Below are positions 5,821 to 10,372 of a stretch of DNA of 32,000 nucleotides, piece after piece (position 1 is the stretch's first letter; each line of letters starts with the position of its first letter). The stretch comes from Oscillospiraceae bacterium. GTDB lineage: Bacteria; Bacillota; Clostridia; Oscillospirales; Ruminococcaceae. Both the position numbers and the translations under genes were made by a program. The notes beneath the pieces were generated by a model. The model saw only the letters and a program-made list of their open reading frames with translations, ran no database searches and had not been told where the DNA came from. The stretch lies in contig JAZAUD010000018.1 in NCBI GenBank assembly GCA_036373775.1, positions 16,999-48,998 of the forward strand, read 5' to 3'.

Positions 5821-6843
5821 TTATCTGAACTGTTCCAAGAAACGAACGTCATTTTCAAATAACAAACGCATATCAGAAATCTGGTATCTTCTCATAACAA
5901 TTCTTTCCAGTCCCAAACCGAACGCAAAACCAGAATAGACACTGGAATCAATTCCACTGTTTTCCAACACCCAAGGATGCACCATTCCAGCACCCAATAA
6001 TTCAATATATCCCTCGTTCTTGCACATACGGCAACCAGCACCATGACAATTGAAGCACATCACGTCAACTTCTGCGGAAGGTTCTGTGAAGGGGAAATGA
6101 TGCGGACGGAGACGGATTTTACAATCATCTCCATACAATCTTTGCATGAGTAATTCCAATGTTCCCTTAAGGTCTGCCATGGTAATGCCCTTATCAATCA
6201 CAAGCCCTTCCACCTGATGGAATAAGGGGGAATGGGTTGCATCTACGGCATCAGAACGATACACACGTCCGGGGGAAATCACACGGATAGGCGGTTTCTG
6301 GGTCTCCATGACATGAACCTGTACAGAAGAGGTCTGTGTTCTCAGCAGAATATTATCTGTGATGTAGAACGTATCTTGTGTATCTCTTGCCGGATGGTCA
6401 GGGGGAAGATTCAAAGCTTCGAAATTATAGTAATCATATTCAACTTCTGGTCCGTCAGCAATGGAAAAGCCCATTCCTAAAAAGATTTCACGGATTTCAT
6501 TTTCCACGATTTTGAGCGGATGTAAATGCCCCATTTCGGGCTTTTTTGCCGGCATGGTAATATCAATTGTTTCGGCAGTCAAACGGGCATTTTGTGCGGC
6601 TTCCTGTAAAGCCTTTGTTTTTTCGGAAATCATGGTTTCCAGCTGTGAGCGTACCTGATTTGCGAGTTGTCCCATGGCTGGGCGTTCTTCTGCGGAAAGT
6701 TTGCCCATTTGTTTGAGAATGGCGGTTAATTCGCCTTTCTTGCCAAGCAGTTTTACACGGAGGTCATCCAGTGCTTTCAGGTCAGTGACAGCGGAAATGG
6801 ATTCCCTTGCACGTTCCTCAATGGATTTGAGTTGTTCTTTCAT
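5821..6843 (-). CDS. pheS: phenylalanine--tRNA ligase alpha subunit
   Basis: 340 aa. Coiled N-terminus, class II motifs (HPLxxV, FRxD-like [17 protein letters not shown]). Confidence 0.97.
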
Positions 6844-7137
6844 AGTTTCACCTCATAAAATAATAAAATTTGATTTGTCAGCATCACTGCAACAAAAAAG
6901 CGACTCATCCCAAAGGGACAAGCCACACTTGTTCACCACCCATTTGGTTCAGAAGCCAACACTTCCTTTGCCTTTAATGCAGGCAATACATCACCACTTA
7001 CAATATTTGCATACTTCGGCAGTGCCACTCGTGAGTGAACTTCACAATTTCCGCCAAACAATGCACTTTCAGCAGATGTACATTTCTCTGTAGAATGGGA
7101 ATGGAAAAAGCTACTCTCTCAGTCAACATGTTATCTG
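6844..7137 (-). promoter_or_regulatory. T-box riboswitch leader, Phe-specific (UUC specifier)
   Basis: On the minus strand: AGAGAG box (7114-7120) and GAAG-UUC-A in the specifier-loop position (UUC = complement of 7037-7039). T-box-like AAAUGGGUGGUGAACAAGUG (6926-6945) sits immediately before the terminator, and pheS is downstream. Confidence 0.75.
6894..6924 (-). terminator. T-box leader attenuator (intrinsic terminator)
   Basis: Minus-strand RNA GGCUUGUCCC-UUUG-GGAUGAGUC followed by GCUUUUUUG. Its 5' arm overlaps the T-box sequence, allowing an alternative antiterminator. Confidence 0.75.
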
Positions 7138-7143
7138 TTTACT

Positions 7144-7172
7144 ATTATAACGCATTTCTACTGAAAAAGCAA
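7144..7172 (-). promoter_or_regulatory. sigma-A type promoter of the pheS T-box leader
   Basis: Minus strand TTGCTT, 17-nt spacer, TATAAT. Confidence 0.6.
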
Positions 7173-7202
7173 GTGTTTTTTTGAAAAAATTCTGAAAAGG
7201 TC

Positions 7203-7231
7203 TTGACAAATTCCATAAAATGTGATAGTAT
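7203..7231 (+). promoter_or_regulatory. promoter of candidate antitoxin sRNA, copy 1
   Basis: TTGACA (7203-7208), 17-nt spacer, TGa-TAGTAT extended -10 (7226-7231). Confidence 0.6.
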
Positions 7232-7237
7232 ATAAGT

Positions 7238-7327
7238 AACAGGGGCGCACCGTAAGCGGTTAGCTCCCATTTTGCTAGGTTTGAAAAAACCGTCCGGCTG
7301 TGGAAGAGCTACGGGCGGTTACTTTTT
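7238..7327 (+). ncRNA. candidate antitoxin sRNA, copy 1 (~90 nt, no ORF)
   Basis: Bounded by the promoter above and the intrinsic terminator AACCGTCCG...CGGGCGGTT plus ACTTTTT. Contains no ATG. Carries the anti-SD GCUCCCA (7263-7269). Its 3' ~45 nt are antisense to the 3' end of the convergent peptide mRNA. Confidence 0.55.
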
Positions 7328-7405
7328 GTTGTGACGATTGCAATATGCGCAATAAGCTGTATACAGACTGCTAATAGCAATCAGCATTTGGAAAAATCGT
7401 TCCAT
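7319..7405 (-). CDS. candidate type I toxin peptide, copy 1 (28 aa: MERFFQMLIAISSLYTAYCAYCNRHNKK)
   Basis: My own translation of the minus strand. Hydrophobic core with a basic NKK tail. GGGAG SD (complement of 7421-7425) is held in the hairpin GCUCCC-AGAU-GGGAG. A consensus promoter lies upstream. A paralog sits in copy 2. Confidence 0.5.
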   Translation of the reverse strand: MERFFQMLIAISSLYTAYCAYCNRHNKK

Positions 7406-7479
7406 GTCATATGTATATCACTCCCATCTGGGAGCAGGATTTAACCGCCTACCGTATTGGTGTACCCTTGTTAATATTG

Positions 7480-7508
7480 ATTATAGCATATTCTGACAAT
7501 TTTGTCAA
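7480..7508 (-). promoter_or_regulatory. promoter of candidate toxin mRNA, copy 1
   Basis: Minus strand TTGACA, 17-nt spacer, TATAAT with upstream TGc. Perfect consensus hexamers. Confidence 0.65.
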
Positions 7509-7528
7509 GAAAAAATTCTGGAAAGGTC

Positions 7529-7557
7529 TTGACAAATTCCATAAAATGTGATAGTAT
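7529..7557 (+). promoter_or_regulatory. promoter of candidate antitoxin sRNA, copy 2
   Basis: Identical to the copy 1 promoter: TTGACA, 17-nt spacer, TGa-TAGTAT. Confidence 0.6.
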
Positions 7558-7563
7558 ATAAGT

Positions 7564-7651
7564 AACAAGGGCGCACCGTAAGCGGTTAGCTCCCGTAAGT
7601 TTGAGTCAAAATGACCGCCCTTGGCTTGGAGACTATGGGCGGTTACTTTTT
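7564..7651 (+). ncRNA. candidate antitoxin sRNA, copy 2 (~88 nt, one ATG with no credible ORF)
   Basis: Same 5' 30 nt as copy 1, including the anti-SD GCUCCC (7589-7594). Divergent middle. Terminator ACCGCCC...GGGCGGT plus TACTTTTT. Confidence 0.55.
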
Positions 7652-7741
7652 GTTGTGATGGTTGTTACCATGAAATGCTGCATATACAAGAAGGACATTA
7701 CAAACTGCAATGACCATCTGGAAAAAATCGTTCCATGTCAT
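7643..7741 (-). CDS. candidate type I toxin peptide, copy 2 (32 aa: MTWNDFFQMVIAVCNVLLVYAAFHGNNHHNKK)
   Basis: My own translation. Shares FFQM[VL]IA...HNKK with copy 1. GGGAG SD sits 10 nt upstream of the ATG and is sequestered in the same hairpin. Confidence 0.5.
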   Translation of the reverse strand: MTWNDFFQMVIAVCNVLLVYAAFHGNNHHNKK

Positions 7742-7810
7742 ATGTGTACCACTCCCATCTGGGAGCAGGATTTAACTGCCTACCGTATTGGTGTACCCTT
7801 GTTAATATTG

Positions 7811-7839
7811 ATTATAGCATATTCTAACAATTTTGTCAA
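7811..7839 (-). promoter_or_regulatory. promoter of candidate toxin mRNA, copy 2
   Basis: Minus strand TTGACA, 17-nt spacer, TATAAT. Confidence 0.65.
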
Positions 7840-7844
7840 GAAAA

Positions 7845-7879
7845 ATCCTACCTTTACAATTGAAAAGGCAGGATTTTTT
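7845..7879. terminator. bidirectional hairpin terminator/insulator flanking the repeat
   Basis: AAAAATCCTACCTTT-acaattga-AAAGGCAGGATTTTTT: 11-bp stem with one mismatch, A-run on one side and T-run on the other. Confidence 0.6.
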
Positions 7880-7900
7880 ATGATGCACCTAATTATACAC

Positions 7901-7929
7901 TTGCAATTTGTTCTGTTTTGTGATATACT
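7901..7929 (+). promoter_or_regulatory. likely promoter of the large membrane-protein gene
   Basis: TTGCAA, 17-nt spacer, TGa-TATACT. Lies downstream of the 7845-7879 terminator. Confidence 0.5.
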
Positions 7930-7984
7930 AAGATACAGATATTACAAGAAAGGAGCTGTCCTTATTGGACAGAATCACAAAACA

Positions 7985-10372
7985 ATGCTGATAAATATTT
8001 TATTTCCATTACTATGGGGAGTGATGTTTATTCTGATGGGGAATCTCATCGCAAAGAAGTGGACACTCCCAACTCATTCATTGCATTTTCCTAAATTCTT
8101 CCATACACTGATACCCGAAAATCAGGTTGCAGATGCTAATTTTTTTGTACGGTGTGGGTGTATGCTGGTAGCAGGGGAAGTATTCATTTTAATGTTGTTA
8201 TCGCTGGTGATTTCAATGTTGATGTTTCGGTATGGAAATTTTTTCCATCCGTTAGCGGTTGCAATTAGTACATCGTTACCCTTTTTGTTGGTGATGTTGA
8301 AGTTACTATTCCCAAATCAAAAGCAATTGCATTCTTTTGTGAAATTGCTTGCTTTGTGTGGGGTTGTGGTTTTGACTGCGGAAGTATTGGTGTTTAATGC
8401 AAAGAGTTTCACGCTTGACAGAGAAATTACCACTTTAACCATTGATGATATTACCTTTGAAGAGGGGGATAACCTCAAAAAAGACGGAAATCAGCTCATT
8501 ATCAAGGGAGATTGTGAAATGTTCCTGAATGACCTCCCACAAAATGCAAGGGGTTTCATCTTCCATATGAATCAGGTTGTGGATAAGGATGCAAGAGTAT
8601 TTCATGTATGGATGGATATGGAAGATGATAATTTCCGCTATGCTTATCAGATTGTAGCAGATACCTATACTTTGGGGGGAGATGATGCTTGTGTGATGTC
8701 ATTTTCTCCTTATGGGAATCTGTATTCTATGCGGTTACATTTTGCACAAATTGCGAACCCTGTAACATTGAATGAAATTTTAGCTGTCCCTGCATTGCCT
8801 TATGAATTTTCATTACTGCGGTATCTTTTTTTGATGGGGATTTGTACGGTAGTATTGGCAGTGATTCAATTTCGGCTGTATGCTATCACCTATGATTGGA
8901 GAAAGCCTCCTCATCAGGCAATTGCAATTATCATGGTGGTACTTTGTACCTTTTCAGCGATGCAGTTCTATGATGTGACAGAATATGAAGAACTCACCGA
9001 ATACCACAAAGAAGAACAATATCCATGGACTGACCCTTATACACAGACGTTTCATGCACTCAATAATGGAAGGGTTGCCCTTGAAATTGAAGTCGCTCCA
9101 GAATTGGAAAAACTCGAAAACCCCTATGATAATAGTGCAAGAAGAGAATTTAATACTCCGGCTGCATGGGATTATGCTTATTATCATGGTAACTATTACA
9201 GCTATTTCGGCATTGCACCAGTTTTAACCTATTATGCACCTTATATTCTTTCTCATGGGAAAATACCAACTACTGGAATGGCAAATGATTTCTTTGCAAC
9301 GCTTTCCATTTTCTTCATGGGAATGGCGTTATTATCAGCGGTGCGCTTGATGACAACCAAACCAAACTTTCTGTTATTACTGGCATCTTTCCCCGCATTG
9401 ACAGCGTGTACAGGGGCATATTACTGCATGGAATTTTCTGATAAATATTTTGTTGCAGTTGCATCAGCACAGTGTTACCTTGCTTTAACATTATGGTTAG
9501 GGCTATGGGGTGTGGCAGTCAAAAAGAAATTATGGAGATGTTTGTTATTTGCTGGGTGTGGTCTTGCATTGGCATTGACAGTGGCATCAAGACCAAGCAT
9601 TTGCATTAGTGCAGCAATTTTATTGCCGTTTTTCTTTGGGATTTTATGCAGAAAATCTGAACCCATTGCAAGCCGTATAACACAGGCATTGAGTTTCGCT
9701 TTGCCTTTATTTGTGGGAATTGGCGGAATCATGGTATATAATGCAAAGCGTTTCAGTTCCCCGTTTGATTTTGGTGCAACGTATCAATTGACTGTCAGCA
9801 ATGTCAATGCCAATCATTTGCAGTTATCCTTGTTACCGTCGGCATTTTTGCATTATTTTTTGCAATTGCCTGAAATGCGTGGCACGTTTCCTTATTTCCA
9901 AACAAGCTGTAGCCATCTGAGAAACTACGGGATATATATTTATATGGAAGGGGTATTTAGTGCGTTAATGAATCCTTTTGCAATGCTTGGGGCTTGTCTC
10001 ATGCCGATTGCCTACAAGCGGAAACTTTGCGGATTTCATCAGGGCATTACGAACCGTCAGAGAAATATTGCTCTTGCATTGTGTTTCATTGTACCGGTGA
10101 TTTTGGCATGGATGGATTTCTGCATGGGTGGCTTGAATATTCGCTACATCTGCGATATTACACCATTGTTATTCATTGGGTGTATTGTGGTATTGTTTCG
10201 GACAACCGACATCAAAAACAAGATGTACCGTTATGTGATTACTTTGATTTTGTTGATTTTGAGTGCATTGATAATTTGGGTGATGCTTCTCGGCATTCGT
10301 GACGGATTATTGATGGTGCATAATCCCACTTATTACGACACAATGAAAAATACGCTCATTTTCTGGCATTGA
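7985..10372 (+). CDS. large polytopic membrane protein, possibly a GT-C-fold glycosyltransferase with an N-terminal extension
   Basis: Long ORF with at least 15 hydrophobic segments and a ~130-aa soluble insert. A loop motif NPYD..R..(9)..WDYAYYHGNYYSYFGIAPV precedes a TM helix, resembling GT-C first-loop acidic/aromatic motifs. Start is uncertain. 7985 is the first ATG after the 7901 promoter but has no SD. An in-frame ATT at 7964 sits 8 nt after AGGAG (7951-7955). The ATG at 7880 overlaps the terminator T-run. The track start at 7601 is an artefact. Confidence 0.8.
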   Translation: MLINILFPLLWGVMFILMGNLIAKKWTLPTHSLHFPKFFHTLIPENQVADANFFVRCGCMLVAGEVFILMLLSLVISMLMFRYGNFFHPLAVAISTSLPFLLVMLKLLFPNQKQLHSFVKLLALCGVVVLTAEVLVFNAKSFTLDREITTLTIDDITFEEGDNLKKDGNQLIIKGDCEMFLNDLPQNARGFIFHMNQVVDKDARVFHVWMDMEDDNFRYAYQIVADTYTLGGDDACVMSFSPYGNLYSMRLHFAQIANPVTLNEILAVPALPYEFSLLRYLFLMGICTVVLAVIQFRLYAITYDWRKPPHQAIAIIMVVLCTFSAMQFYDVTEYEELTEYHKEEQYPWTDPYTQTFHALNNGRVALEIEVAPELEKLENPYDNSARREFNTPAAWDYAYYHGNYYSYFGIAPVLTYYAPYILSHGKIPTTGMANDFFATLSIFFMGMALLSAVRLMTTKPNFLLLLASFPALTACTGAYYCMEFSDKYFVAVASAQCYLALTLWLGLWGVAVKKKLWRCLLFAGCGLALALTVASRPSICISAAILLPFFFGILCRKSEPIASRITQALSFALPLFVGIGGIMVYNAKRFSSPFDFGATYQLTVSNVNANHLQLSLLPSAFLHYFLQLPEMRGTFPYFQTSCSHLRNYGIYIYMEGVFSALMNPFAMLGACLMPIAYKRKLCGFHQGITNRQRNIALALCFIVPVILAWMDFCMGGLNIRYICDITPLLFIGCIVVLFRTTDIKNKMYRYVITLILLILSALIIWVMLLGIRDGLLMVHNPTYYDTMKNTLIFWH

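Follow-up and report, generated by a model that had tools for sequence, protein, structure and literature searches.

A stretch of 32,000 nucleotides (nt) from an Oscillospiraceae bacterium (assembly GCA_036373775.1, contig JAZAUD010000018.1, positions 16,999-48,998 of the forward strand; hereafter the window) contains, at positions 7183-7880, what are probably two tandem copies of an undescribed type I toxin-antitoxin (TA)-like module with a par-like architecture, belonging to Ruminococcus-type Clostridia. In each copy, a plus-strand small RNA (sRNA), the putative antitoxin, and a minus-strand mRNA for a peptide of about 30 residues, the putative toxin, are predicted to be transcribed toward each other and to end at a single hairpin that acts as terminator on both strands. 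At the sequence level, the presence of two tandem modules with predicted antisense control at the coordinates in Table 1 is confirmed, and the unit as a whole, comprising both promoters, the mRNA leader, a hairpin over the Shine-Dalgarno (SD) sequence, the fusion of stop codon and terminator, and the sRNA, is conserved in more than 50 loci of other genomes. Confidence is high in the architecture and the predicted antisense control, and moderate in the toxicity of the peptide.

Architecture of the Tandem Units

The region 7183-7845 consists of two direct-repeat units of ~330 bp each, with start-to-start distances of 326-331 bp. Their outer thirds are 97-98% identical (7183-7268 versus 7509-7594, and 7392-7514 versus 7723-7845), and the middle, which holds the coding sequence and the terminator, is far more diverged than these outer parts. 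The four module promoters, all of the sigma-70 type and facing each other in pairs, are the top-scoring sites within a 1.5-kb scan. Among related loci, a TTGACA-17-TAnnnT promoter occupies the same position at every one of 40 sRNA loci and in the family consensus reads TTGACA-17-(TG)TATAAT, and the toxin promoter is found 62-82 nt upstream of the AUG in 29 loci. The combination of promoter and terminator in 40 loci points to a cis-encoded antisense RNA with a promoter of its own, as type I TA systems possess.

The preliminary description of this DNA had proposed two tandem copies of ~328 bp, each with facing promoters (TTGACA-17-TAGTAT on the plus strand and a perfect TTGACA-17-TATAAT on the minus strand), a ~90-nt plus-strand RNA lacking a credible open reading frame (ORF), a ~190-nt minus-strand mRNA, a shared two-way terminator that renders the 3' ~45 nt of the two RNAs complementary, and a local hairpin that locks the SD. 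All of these elements were recovered: the copies and their spacing by repeat comparison, the promoters in both units by the promoter scan, the mRNA by the distance from consensus promoter to terminator, the sRNA by its promoter, its terminator, and a covariance model (see below), the shared terminator by sequence and folds, and the SD hairpin by the folds of both mRNAs.

Table 1. Predicted features of the two modules and the adjoining hairpin (positions refer to the window; RNA ends follow promoter and terminator consensus)
Feature	Position	Strand	Description
sRNA-1 promoter	7203..7231	+	TTGACA, 17 nt, TG-n-TAGTAT; 10/12
sRNA-1	7238..7333	+	~94 nt; covariance model R1 49.6 bits, E=1.1e-8, full length 1-94
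Terminator 1	7288..7320	both	arms AACCGTCCG / CGGGCGGTT; U-runs on both strands
Toxin-1 ORF	7319..7410	-	ancestral 30-aa frame from AUG 7410..7408
Toxin-1 mRNA	7282..7473	-	~192 nt; leader with GGUAGGCGGUUAA
Toxin-1 mRNA promoter	7480..7508	-	TTGACA, 17 nt, TG-n-TATAAT; 12/12
sRNA-2 promoter	7529..7557	+	TTGACA-17-TAGTAT with upstream TG; 10/12
sRNA-2	7564..7657	+	~94 nt; R1 58.1 bits, E=1.8e-10
Terminator 2	7612..7645	both	arms TGACCGCCC / GGGCGGTTA; loop UUGG on sRNA strand
Toxin-2 ORF	7643..7741	-	32 aa, MTWNDFFQMVIAVCNVLLVYAAFHGNNHHNKK; fits family consensus
Toxin-2 mRNA	7606..7804	-	~199 nt; 63-nt leader
Toxin-2 mRNA promoter	7811..7839	-	TTGACA-17-TATAAT, TG-extended; 12/12
Flanking hairpin	7841..7880	both	AAAAATCCTaCCTTTaCAATTGaAAAGGcAGGATTTTTT; inverted repeat with U-runs on both strands, between toxin-2 promoter and membrane-protein gene

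A Conserved Family with a Coding Signature

Using a profile of the two window peptides, six clusters were retrieved from 1.84 billion representative proteins (E=7e-9 to 5e-4), all of which display M-x-WNDFFQ-x-(I/L)IA followed by (K/R) tails. A wider search yielded 21 clusters with the consensus M[ST]WNDFFQx[IL]IAxSNVLL...K[KR]K (in short, M-x-WNDFFQ-x-IIA...KRK), none of which is named or contains a Pfam domain. Three longer matches are mis-called proteins, in which the upstream translation (e.g., LTNNDNADIM) represents read-through of the conserved TTGACA-17-TATAAT promoter. The earlier statement that annotation would miss the locus needs qualification: related small ORFs are sometimes called by pipelines, without a name. 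In addition, a degenerate DNA pattern for M-x-W-N-D-F-F-Q was scanned against one genome per species and detected 67 loci, about 36 of which have an intact family ORF of 25-37 amino acids (aa). These carry the labels Ruminococcus, Oscillospiraceae, Acutalibacteraceae, Porcipelethomonas, "Clostridium", and "Clostridia", and include the cultured Pseudoruminococcus massiliensis, whose strain Marseille-P3876 carries the module at locus L092; many metagenome contigs have the same module architecture. The remaining pattern matches, in other phyla, were rejected as chance matches or other proteins.

In the family peptide, a polar N-terminus (M-x-W-N-D) precedes one hydrophobic helix, after which comes a Lys/Arg tail. 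AlphaFold2, supplied with the family alignment, models one helix over residues 3-25 (mean pLDDT 82) and a disordered basic tail. A length of 25-37 aa and a predicted helix agree with the type I toxin profile of fewer than 70 aa, a single transmembrane (TM) helix, and a polar or charged C-terminus.

The small ORF bears a clear coding signature at the sequence level. Across 35 distinct coding sequences, entropy at the three codon positions is 0.57/0.33/1.15, and for codons 9-21, a segment not covered by the search pattern, the values are 0.84/0.47/1.48; in this segment, synonymous changes make up 40% of the codon differences when read in the peptide frame, compared with 5-7% in the two other frames of the strand. 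When loci were anchored on the sRNA rather than the peptide, 51 of 54 sRNA copies were found to face an intact hydrophobic ORF of 25-37 aa with an SD and a basic tail (Lys/Arg in all 51), including peptides that lack a WNDFFQ match, such as MNNYVTWTDLFQFGILIITYTAFLYGIFHDNKKK, MSTLELLTLINVVLNIIALVNNNKKK, and MELFYIILAIVLLVALDNVIKNIKK. It is very improbable, given this pattern, that the units are a noncoding intergenic repeat, for example a mobile palindromic element, in which the ORFs are incidental. A tandem repeat rich in inverted repeats, whose center is more diverged than its flanks, is what such an element might look like; however, variation concentrated at third positions, the excess of synonymous changes, the retention of an ORF with SD and basic tail even where the peptide is wholly different, and promoters at fixed distances all argue for a gene, and no terminal repeats or target duplications were seen.

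The three exceptions among the 54 sRNA copies comprise one masked sequence and two sRNAs located beside 5'-truncated toxin genes (L030, 1442-1541; L073, 3839-3938). At these two orphan loci, the toxin retains only its C-terminal codons (…AYLAYLTHNKRK and …NILLVYHAFFRDNEK), and its 5' part has been replaced by unrelated sequence. Two antitoxins are orphans in this sense, and no toxin was found to lack an sRNA.

Modules frequently occur in tandem arrays of two to five units, with eight units on one 22-kb contig. On this contig, JAMPFN010000040.1, the eight modules, with a spacing of ~320 bp, are split between two arrays (L038, 899-2287; L087, 7047-7775): the five-unit array combines four peptide types (MNNYVTWTDLFQ..., MDNTVTWNELLQ..., MTWNDFFQ..., and MDNYITWNDIIAI...), and the three units of the other are near-identical. 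The RNA scaffold has apparently been reused with unrelated toxins as well, judging from a mis-called 128-aa protein (P0019) that contains read-through of the family promoter and leader (…LVLTKYDVYAIM…GWRRILSSRKGVIL) followed by a different peptide, MGNVASYVTWDQLIDSGIMLATLATLIYAIYRDHKRK. Another partner peptide, MENVVTWSDLFQFIIAIATVGTLIVSIVDSHNKRK (L027, 1509-1603), gave weak matches to DUF6486 (E=0.0036, 17.3 bits versus a cutoff of 22.7) and to the NCBIfam "smalltalk protein" (E=0.01, 15.6 bits versus a cutoff of 24.7). A remote link of this peptide to other tiny membrane peptides is possible; the DUF6486 and "smalltalk" matches, like the weak Hol_Tox matches considered below, were rejected as sub-threshold.

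Predicted Structures of the Two RNAs

The sRNA is predicted to be composed of a 5' hairpin (GGGGC..GCUCC(C) in sRNA-1), an AU-rich linker, and the terminator, and its family consensus reads AAGAGCAUACCGAUAGACGGUCGCUCCC, an AU-rich linker of 15-25 nt, and AAUAACCGUCC-loop-GGGCGGUUAUUUCCUUUU. No credible or conserved ORF was found in the plus-strand RNAs. A covariance model, R1, was constructed from 40 related sRNAs; it matches the window at the two expected places only, gives 57 strong matches (52-94 bits) in related loci, and has no match in 15 unrelated control loci. At gathering score, Rfam returned no match to a module RNA in the window, and a permissive Rfam scan of 7000-8100 produced, besides a T-box leader of pheS, only sub-threshold unrelated matches. 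By a 2021 count, 13 type I antitoxin families are represented in Rfam (PMC8594479).

Both RNAs are predicted to end at one two-way terminator, which would make their 3' ~45-50 nt exactly complementary; this overlap takes in the stop codon together with the last ~4 codons of the toxin ORF, where the U-run of the sRNA lies. In toxin-2, the stop codon UAA forms part of the terminator stem, and across the family UAA is fused to a stem CCGCCC...GGGCGG. The hairpin is systematically more stable on the sRNA strand (38 of 39 loci; -14.3 versus -10.6 kcal/mol; p=6e-8), because G-U pairs on this strand become C-A mismatches on the toxin strand. Terminator 2 illustrates this asymmetry (-18.1 kcal/mol on the sRNA strand versus -13.4 on the toxin strand), as does terminator 1 (-17.7 versus -10.8 kcal/mol, obtained with the identical copy-1 sRNA of the sister contig L001). 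UUGG is present in 18 of 33 sRNA terminator loops, compared with 3.0 expected from shuffling, and fits YUNR, a loop motif known from fast-pairing antisense RNAs. The terminator stem sequence itself (UAACCGCCC/GGGCGGUUA) is conserved across related loci, which is unusual for an intrinsic terminator.

The toxin mRNA has a family leader of ~60 nt with the layout AAGAGCAUACC-N5-ACGGUAGGCGGUYAAUCC-n-GCUCCC-GGAA-GGGAGUGA-N5-AUG. In both window copies, the SD (GGGAG) folds against an anti-SD (CUCCC) located 4 nt upstream, forming the hairpins CUCCC(7434..7430)-AGAU-GGGAG(7425..7421) in toxin-1 and CUCCC(7765..7761)-AGAU-GGGAG(7756..7752) in toxin-2. The probability that the SD is paired is 0.96-0.99 in these folds (0.99 for toxin-1) and averages 0.94 across 27 full-length toxin mRNAs, in line with the occluded ribosome binding site of type I toxin mRNAs. 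The GCUC of the anti-SD may also pair with a 5'-terminal GAGC, and both helices fit the alignment, with 87% of cells paired for the SD hairpin and 95% for the alternative. A linked change is seen in two loci (L025 and L071), where the SD is GGGGG, the anti-SD CCCC, the sRNA GCCCC, and the 5' arm GGC. Furthermore, the invariant leader motif GGCGGU can pair with ACCGCC in the 5' arm of the terminator, a pairing that RNAalifold selects for the consensus structure; its probability is 0.81 in window copy 1 versus 0 in copy 2, which reads GGCAGU.

Some family members (L012, L013, L027, L092, L040, L062, and L068) carry structured leader insertions of 40-70 nt, placed either between ACGGUA and GGCGGU or ahead of the SD. 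L012 and L092 have another SD hairpin (AUCCCUGCUUUC...GAAAGGAGGGAU) with the 5' end and the sRNA unchanged.

At their 5' ends, the sRNA and its cognate mRNA resemble each other in the same sense, the sRNA 5' hairpin being a same-sense copy of the leader that includes CUCCC. This likeness is greater within cognate pairs than between loci (10.16 versus 7.74; permutation p<1e-4). The 5' ends share sequence, not complementarity, because the DNA carries the repeats that link these two regions in inverted orientation.

Strain Polymorphism in the Putative Toxin Genes

The same locus is present in three metagenome contigs (L001-L003) at 99.4% identity. The window differs from these sister contigs at 8 sites in 1.26 kb (6844-8100), 6 of which fall within the module, and 4 of these 6 affect toxin coding or leader positions. 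Differences were noted at 7391, 7700, 7725, 7749, and 7777, and one change is synonymous.

In toxin-1, a 1-nt deletion at 7391 leaves U5 instead of U6 on the minus strand of the window. The sister contigs carry U6 and encode the 30-aa peptide MTWNDFFQMLIAISSLYTAYCAYCNRHNKK from an upstream AUG; in the window, the first AUG opens just a 9-aa stub, and the frameshift leaves a 28-aa peptide starting MERFFQ (MERFFQMLIAISSLYTAYCAYCNRHNKK; 7405..7319, minus strand) from an AUG at 7405..7403 with poor SD spacing. Owing to this frameshift, the 28-aa peptide represents a damaged form of the 30-aa one. In this respect, the preliminary description, which named peptides of 28 and 32 aa, needs correction. 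A reading of the shorter peptide as a second natural isoform was rejected in favor of a strain-specific frameshift, given the three sister contigs; a homopolymer sequencing error at 7391 is possible.

The toxin-2 leader of the window deviates at two conserved positions, with GGCAGU instead of GGCGGU at 7777 and GUGG instead of GUGA at 7749. At 7725, it is the sister contigs that carry a substitution (F6S), at a family-invariant toxin-2 residue where the window retains Phe. Given the toxin-1 frameshift and the two toxin-2 leader changes, both toxins may be attenuated in the window strain, and the overall pattern of polymorphism suggests ongoing attenuation of the toxins.

Genomic Setting and the Adjacent Open Reading Frame

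The modules have a chromosomal setting, with pheS (5821-6843, minus strand), its T-box leader, and pheT on one side, and a gene for a large membrane protein followed by nifU-like and nifS-like genes on the other. The T-box leader upstream of pheS (7135..7000, minus strand) scored 38.5 bits (E=9e-7) in a search whose boundary truncated it and was absent from the gathering-score scan of the whole window; it directly adjoins the sRNA-1 promoter region, and a terminator-like hairpin lies at 6926-6900 (minus strand). At the other end, the flanking hairpin probably insulates the module from the membrane-protein gene against read-through, and comparable hairpins border modules in L087 and L012/L013.

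Searches of the 697-bp region by blastn against phage and plasmid collections, and of the peptide by tblastn against plasmids, returned no match. Likewise, nothing was found with the exact leader pattern and the peptide alignment in viral contigs, and the peptide DNA pattern identified one true carrier among them, L098 (IMG/VR). Elsewhere in the family, modules are located beside a phage integrase and AntA, in an element that also carries genes for a topoisomerase and a resolvase, on the viral contig, and in intergenic regions between housekeeping genes.

The second unit is covered by an ORF of 923 aa (7601-10372), whose beginning had been described as a false 5' extension. The comparison with homologs agrees: membrane-protein homologs of 778-808 aa, at 35-75% identity, cover a 795-aa query starting at AUG 7985, and the supposed extension contains a terminator-like hairpin at 7841-7880, a promoter at 7901-7929, and a GGAG at 7952-7955. 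The 5' end of the 923-aa ORF is, by these sequence features, spurious. That 7601-7984 instead encodes the true N-terminus of the membrane protein, the copy-2 module being coincidental, is a practically negligible prospect; the frame is open from 7601 and the public gene call in a near-identical metagenome (876 aa) starts at 7742, but apart from homolog lengths and the signals inside the extension, the same DNA recurs as a conserved module in unrelated contexts. The actual start of the membrane protein is ambiguous. The GGAG is followed 8 nt later by an in-frame AUU (7964), and an out-of-frame UUG (7965) opens an 8-codon mini-ORF that ends at 7991 and overlaps the first in-frame AUG (7985), so that translational coupling or an AUU start is possible.

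Possible Mechanism and Significance

By analogy with txpA/RatA, bsrG/SR4, bsrE/SR5, and par (PMC3834814, PMC6563280, PMC7472228), the sRNA would contact the toxin mRNA through the complementary terminator loops, with the conserved UUGG in the sRNA loop. This loop contact may then zip into the 3' duplex and mark the toxin mRNA for nuclease decay, and the cis anti-SD hairpin would keep any free toxin mRNA poorly translated. The toxin peptide, once made, is expected to insert into the membrane and be harmful.

Other roles are speculative. The CUCCC of the sRNA 5' hairpin might be a second, trans-acting anti-SD site, or belong to a 5' structure that protects both RNAs, and the GGCGGU-ACCGCC pairing might be an alternative to the weaker terminator hairpin of the toxin strand. 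A broader scenario, conceivable but doubtful, would have the antitoxin arise by inverted duplication of the toxin promoter and 5' leader. The sRNA, whose 5' hairpin shares the 5' arm and the anti-SD of the cognate mRNA and would co-evolve with it, would thereby become a "leader mimic" that makes a second, paralog-specific contact by arm swapping with the mRNA leader and SD, and the strand-asymmetric terminator together with GGCGGU would provide a 5'-3' switch between an inert and a translatable mRNA. Under this scenario, the leader-mimic contact would keep up to five tandem modules from cross-talk.

Several traits typical of TA systems recur in the family, including arrays, mobile or viral sites, orphan sRNAs beside truncated toxins, and polymorphism in toxin determinants. 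An alternative that seems unlikely is that the peptide is a genuine antisense-regulated membrane protein with a regulatory or accessory role, whose level is tuned by the sRNA, and not a toxin. Conservation as such shows only selection on peptide and sRNA, and many loci lie between housekeeping genes, both of which would suit such a protein. It is harder to reconcile with up to five divergent tandem copies, each with its own sRNA, with loci carried by a prophage, by an integrative element, or by a viral contig, and with orphan sRNAs that lie beside truncated peptide genes and never the reverse. Strong SD sequestration and the occurrence of a frameshift, F6S, and leader mutations between near-identical strains also speak against it.

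A type I TA-like module remains the preferred interpretation, and a number of points weigh against it. The peptide has no detectable homology to any validated toxin, which equally favors a non-toxin role. In the window, the toxin promoter is closer to consensus than that of the antitoxin, an uncommon arrangement among chromosomal type I systems, and the RNA ends are deduced from promoter and terminator consensus. The covariation term of the sRNA consensus fold is just -1.1 kcal/mol, the SD hairpin has only two pairs changed on both sides, and shuffle controls were unexceeded on most measures. Leader-terminator pairing has a mean probability of 0.2 and no compensatory change. A second contact between the sRNA CUCCC and the mRNA SD gives RNAduplex z-scores of -2.7 to +0.7 relative to shuffled sRNAs and lacks clear covariation, and in the window, the anti-SD of the mRNA itself pairs better; the possible length of this contact is 6-13 bp, without statistical support. 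The alignment is compatible with the SD hairpin, the 5'-end/anti-SD helix, and the leader-terminator pairing (87-95% of cells paired), but double changes are too few to give any of them statistical support. In the covariance analysis suggested in the preliminary description, the SD hairpin thus shows compatible pairs (87%) and the linked change in L025 and L071, but covariation as such is weak because the RNAs are highly conserved and double changes are rare.

Most of the type I TA systems known so far come from Enterobacteria, Bacilli, Helicobacter, and Clostridioides difficile. Ruminococcus and its relatives are dominant fiber degraders of the rumen and human gut, in which no type I TA system has been described. 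Peptides of ~30 aa, a compact ~94-nt antisense RNA, a covariance model, and a cultured carrier (P. massiliensis) are available for further work. If toxicity is confirmed, the module would represent a new toxin and antitoxin family and would account for 5' extensions that are mis-annotated, and for 30-aa genes labeled "hypothetical", across many metagenome-assembled genomes. It would also offer small orthogonal RNA parts and counter-selection markers for gut anaerobes that are hard to engineer, as well as a series of up to five co-resident paralogs in which antisense specificity can be studied.

Comparison with Known Systems

The module resembles par of Enterococcus faecalis pAD1 (RNA I/RNA II) in its convergent promoters and one shared two-way terminator, and the terminator of the Ruminococcus-type module contains a YUNR-like loop motif, a motif that also has a role in par. 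Both systems encode a ~30-aa single-helix peptide, and in both the ribosome binding site is sequestered by a stem-loop in the 5' region (PMC7472228). In par, however, the repeats DRa and DRb make the 5' regions complementary, so that the interaction takes place outside the overlap and the ORF is not overlapped (PMC7472228, PMC8594479). The module has no DRa/DRb repeats giving 5' complementarity around the start codon, its two 5' ends are alike in sense, and unlike Fst/RNAII, its overlap extends into the final codons of the ORF (PMC8594479). The peptide tail is basic rather than acidic as in Fst. The Fst/Ldr signature combines a P/D/S/TxxxG(C) motif with a conserved Trp that separates the TM helix from the charged C-terminus (PMC7472228); the family alignment has neither a Pro nor a Gly motif, and its sole conserved Trp is residue 3. 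Fst models in Pfam and NCBIfam gave no match at E<=10. Consequently, the label "par/fst-like" used in the preliminary description is apt for the architecture of convergent RNAs and a shared terminator, but not for the Fst signature, the DRa/DRb logic, or the ORF-free overlap.

In gene layout, the module also resembles txpA/RatA, bsrG/SR4, bsrE/SR5, and bsrH/as-bsrH, where an antisense RNA on the 3' side of the toxin mRNA reaches into the end of the ORF (PMC8594479). The Bacillus subtilis peptides of this group are 28-60 aa long, with one TM helix and a charged C-terminus, and are often encoded in prophage-like elements (PMC6563280, PMC8594479, PMC2965217). For SR4, antitoxin action through the 3' duplex, through decay, and through a structural effect on the SD has been established (PMC3834814). 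Unlike these systems, the module has an overlap of ~45-50 nt that is essentially the terminator, compared with ~100 nt (PMC2965217), and its sRNA of ~94 nt forms two hairpins rather than the four helices of the Bacillus antitoxins.

When 26 family peptides were compared with Pfam, NCBIfam, and PDB sequences, no match exceeded the cutoff. The peptides were previously not recognized as Fst, TxpA, or BsrG, a judgment with which the lack of a Pfam or NCBIfam match and the missed Hol_Tox cutoff agree. It is rather improbable that the toxin is a very diverged member of Hol_Tox (PF16935; TxpA/BsrG/SprG) or of BsrE/BsrH, forming a distant branch. The size of 25-37 aa and the basic tail are similar, and the starts MSTLELL.../MSWNDFF... 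look by eye like that of TxpA (MSTYESL...). The layout of an antisense RNA on the 3' side, over the end of the ORF, is also that of Hol_Tox-type systems (PMC8594479), and weak Hol_Tox matches were obtained (E=0.066 for 1 of 16 core members; 0.92 and 1.6 for others). These scores nonetheless fall far short of the 23.3-bit gathering score (best 9-10 bits, E=0.9-1.6, for two variant peptides), hhalign gave a probability of 6% against an SprG/PepG1 alignment, and no NCBIfam toxin model or Rfam antitoxin family is matched.

The Staphylococcus aureus pairs SprA1/SprA1AS and SprG/SprF also consist of 3'-overlapping antisense pairs with membrane peptides of ~30-44 aa (PepA1, PepG1). In SprA1/SprA1AS, the functional pairing occurs outside the overlap (PMC8594479), which is a precedent for the idea that the 5' hairpin of the module sRNA (CUCCC) could target the SD. 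The possible long-range pairing of the 5' leader with the 3' end (GGCGGU with ACCGCC) recalls hok/sok-type mRNAs, in which 5'-3' pairing holds the mRNA inactive (PMC7472228). Unlike the module, Sok overlaps the 5' region, the Hok toxin is unrelated, and hok/sok hosts are Gram-negative; moreover, the pairing in the module comprises 6-8 bp. The C. difficile toxins measure 34-59 aa and, according to a review, show no homology to other families (PMC6563280).

In the literature searched, the string WNDFFQ occurred in no paper, and none was found that describes this module family or a type I TA system of Ruminococcus and related bacteria. On the sequence comparisons made here, the module family is probably new, with the BsrE/BsrH and CD-RCd peptides compared via Pfam/NCBIfam models. 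Its mirrored 5' domains and its systematically asymmetric two-way terminator appear to be design features that have not been described for other families in the literature consulted.

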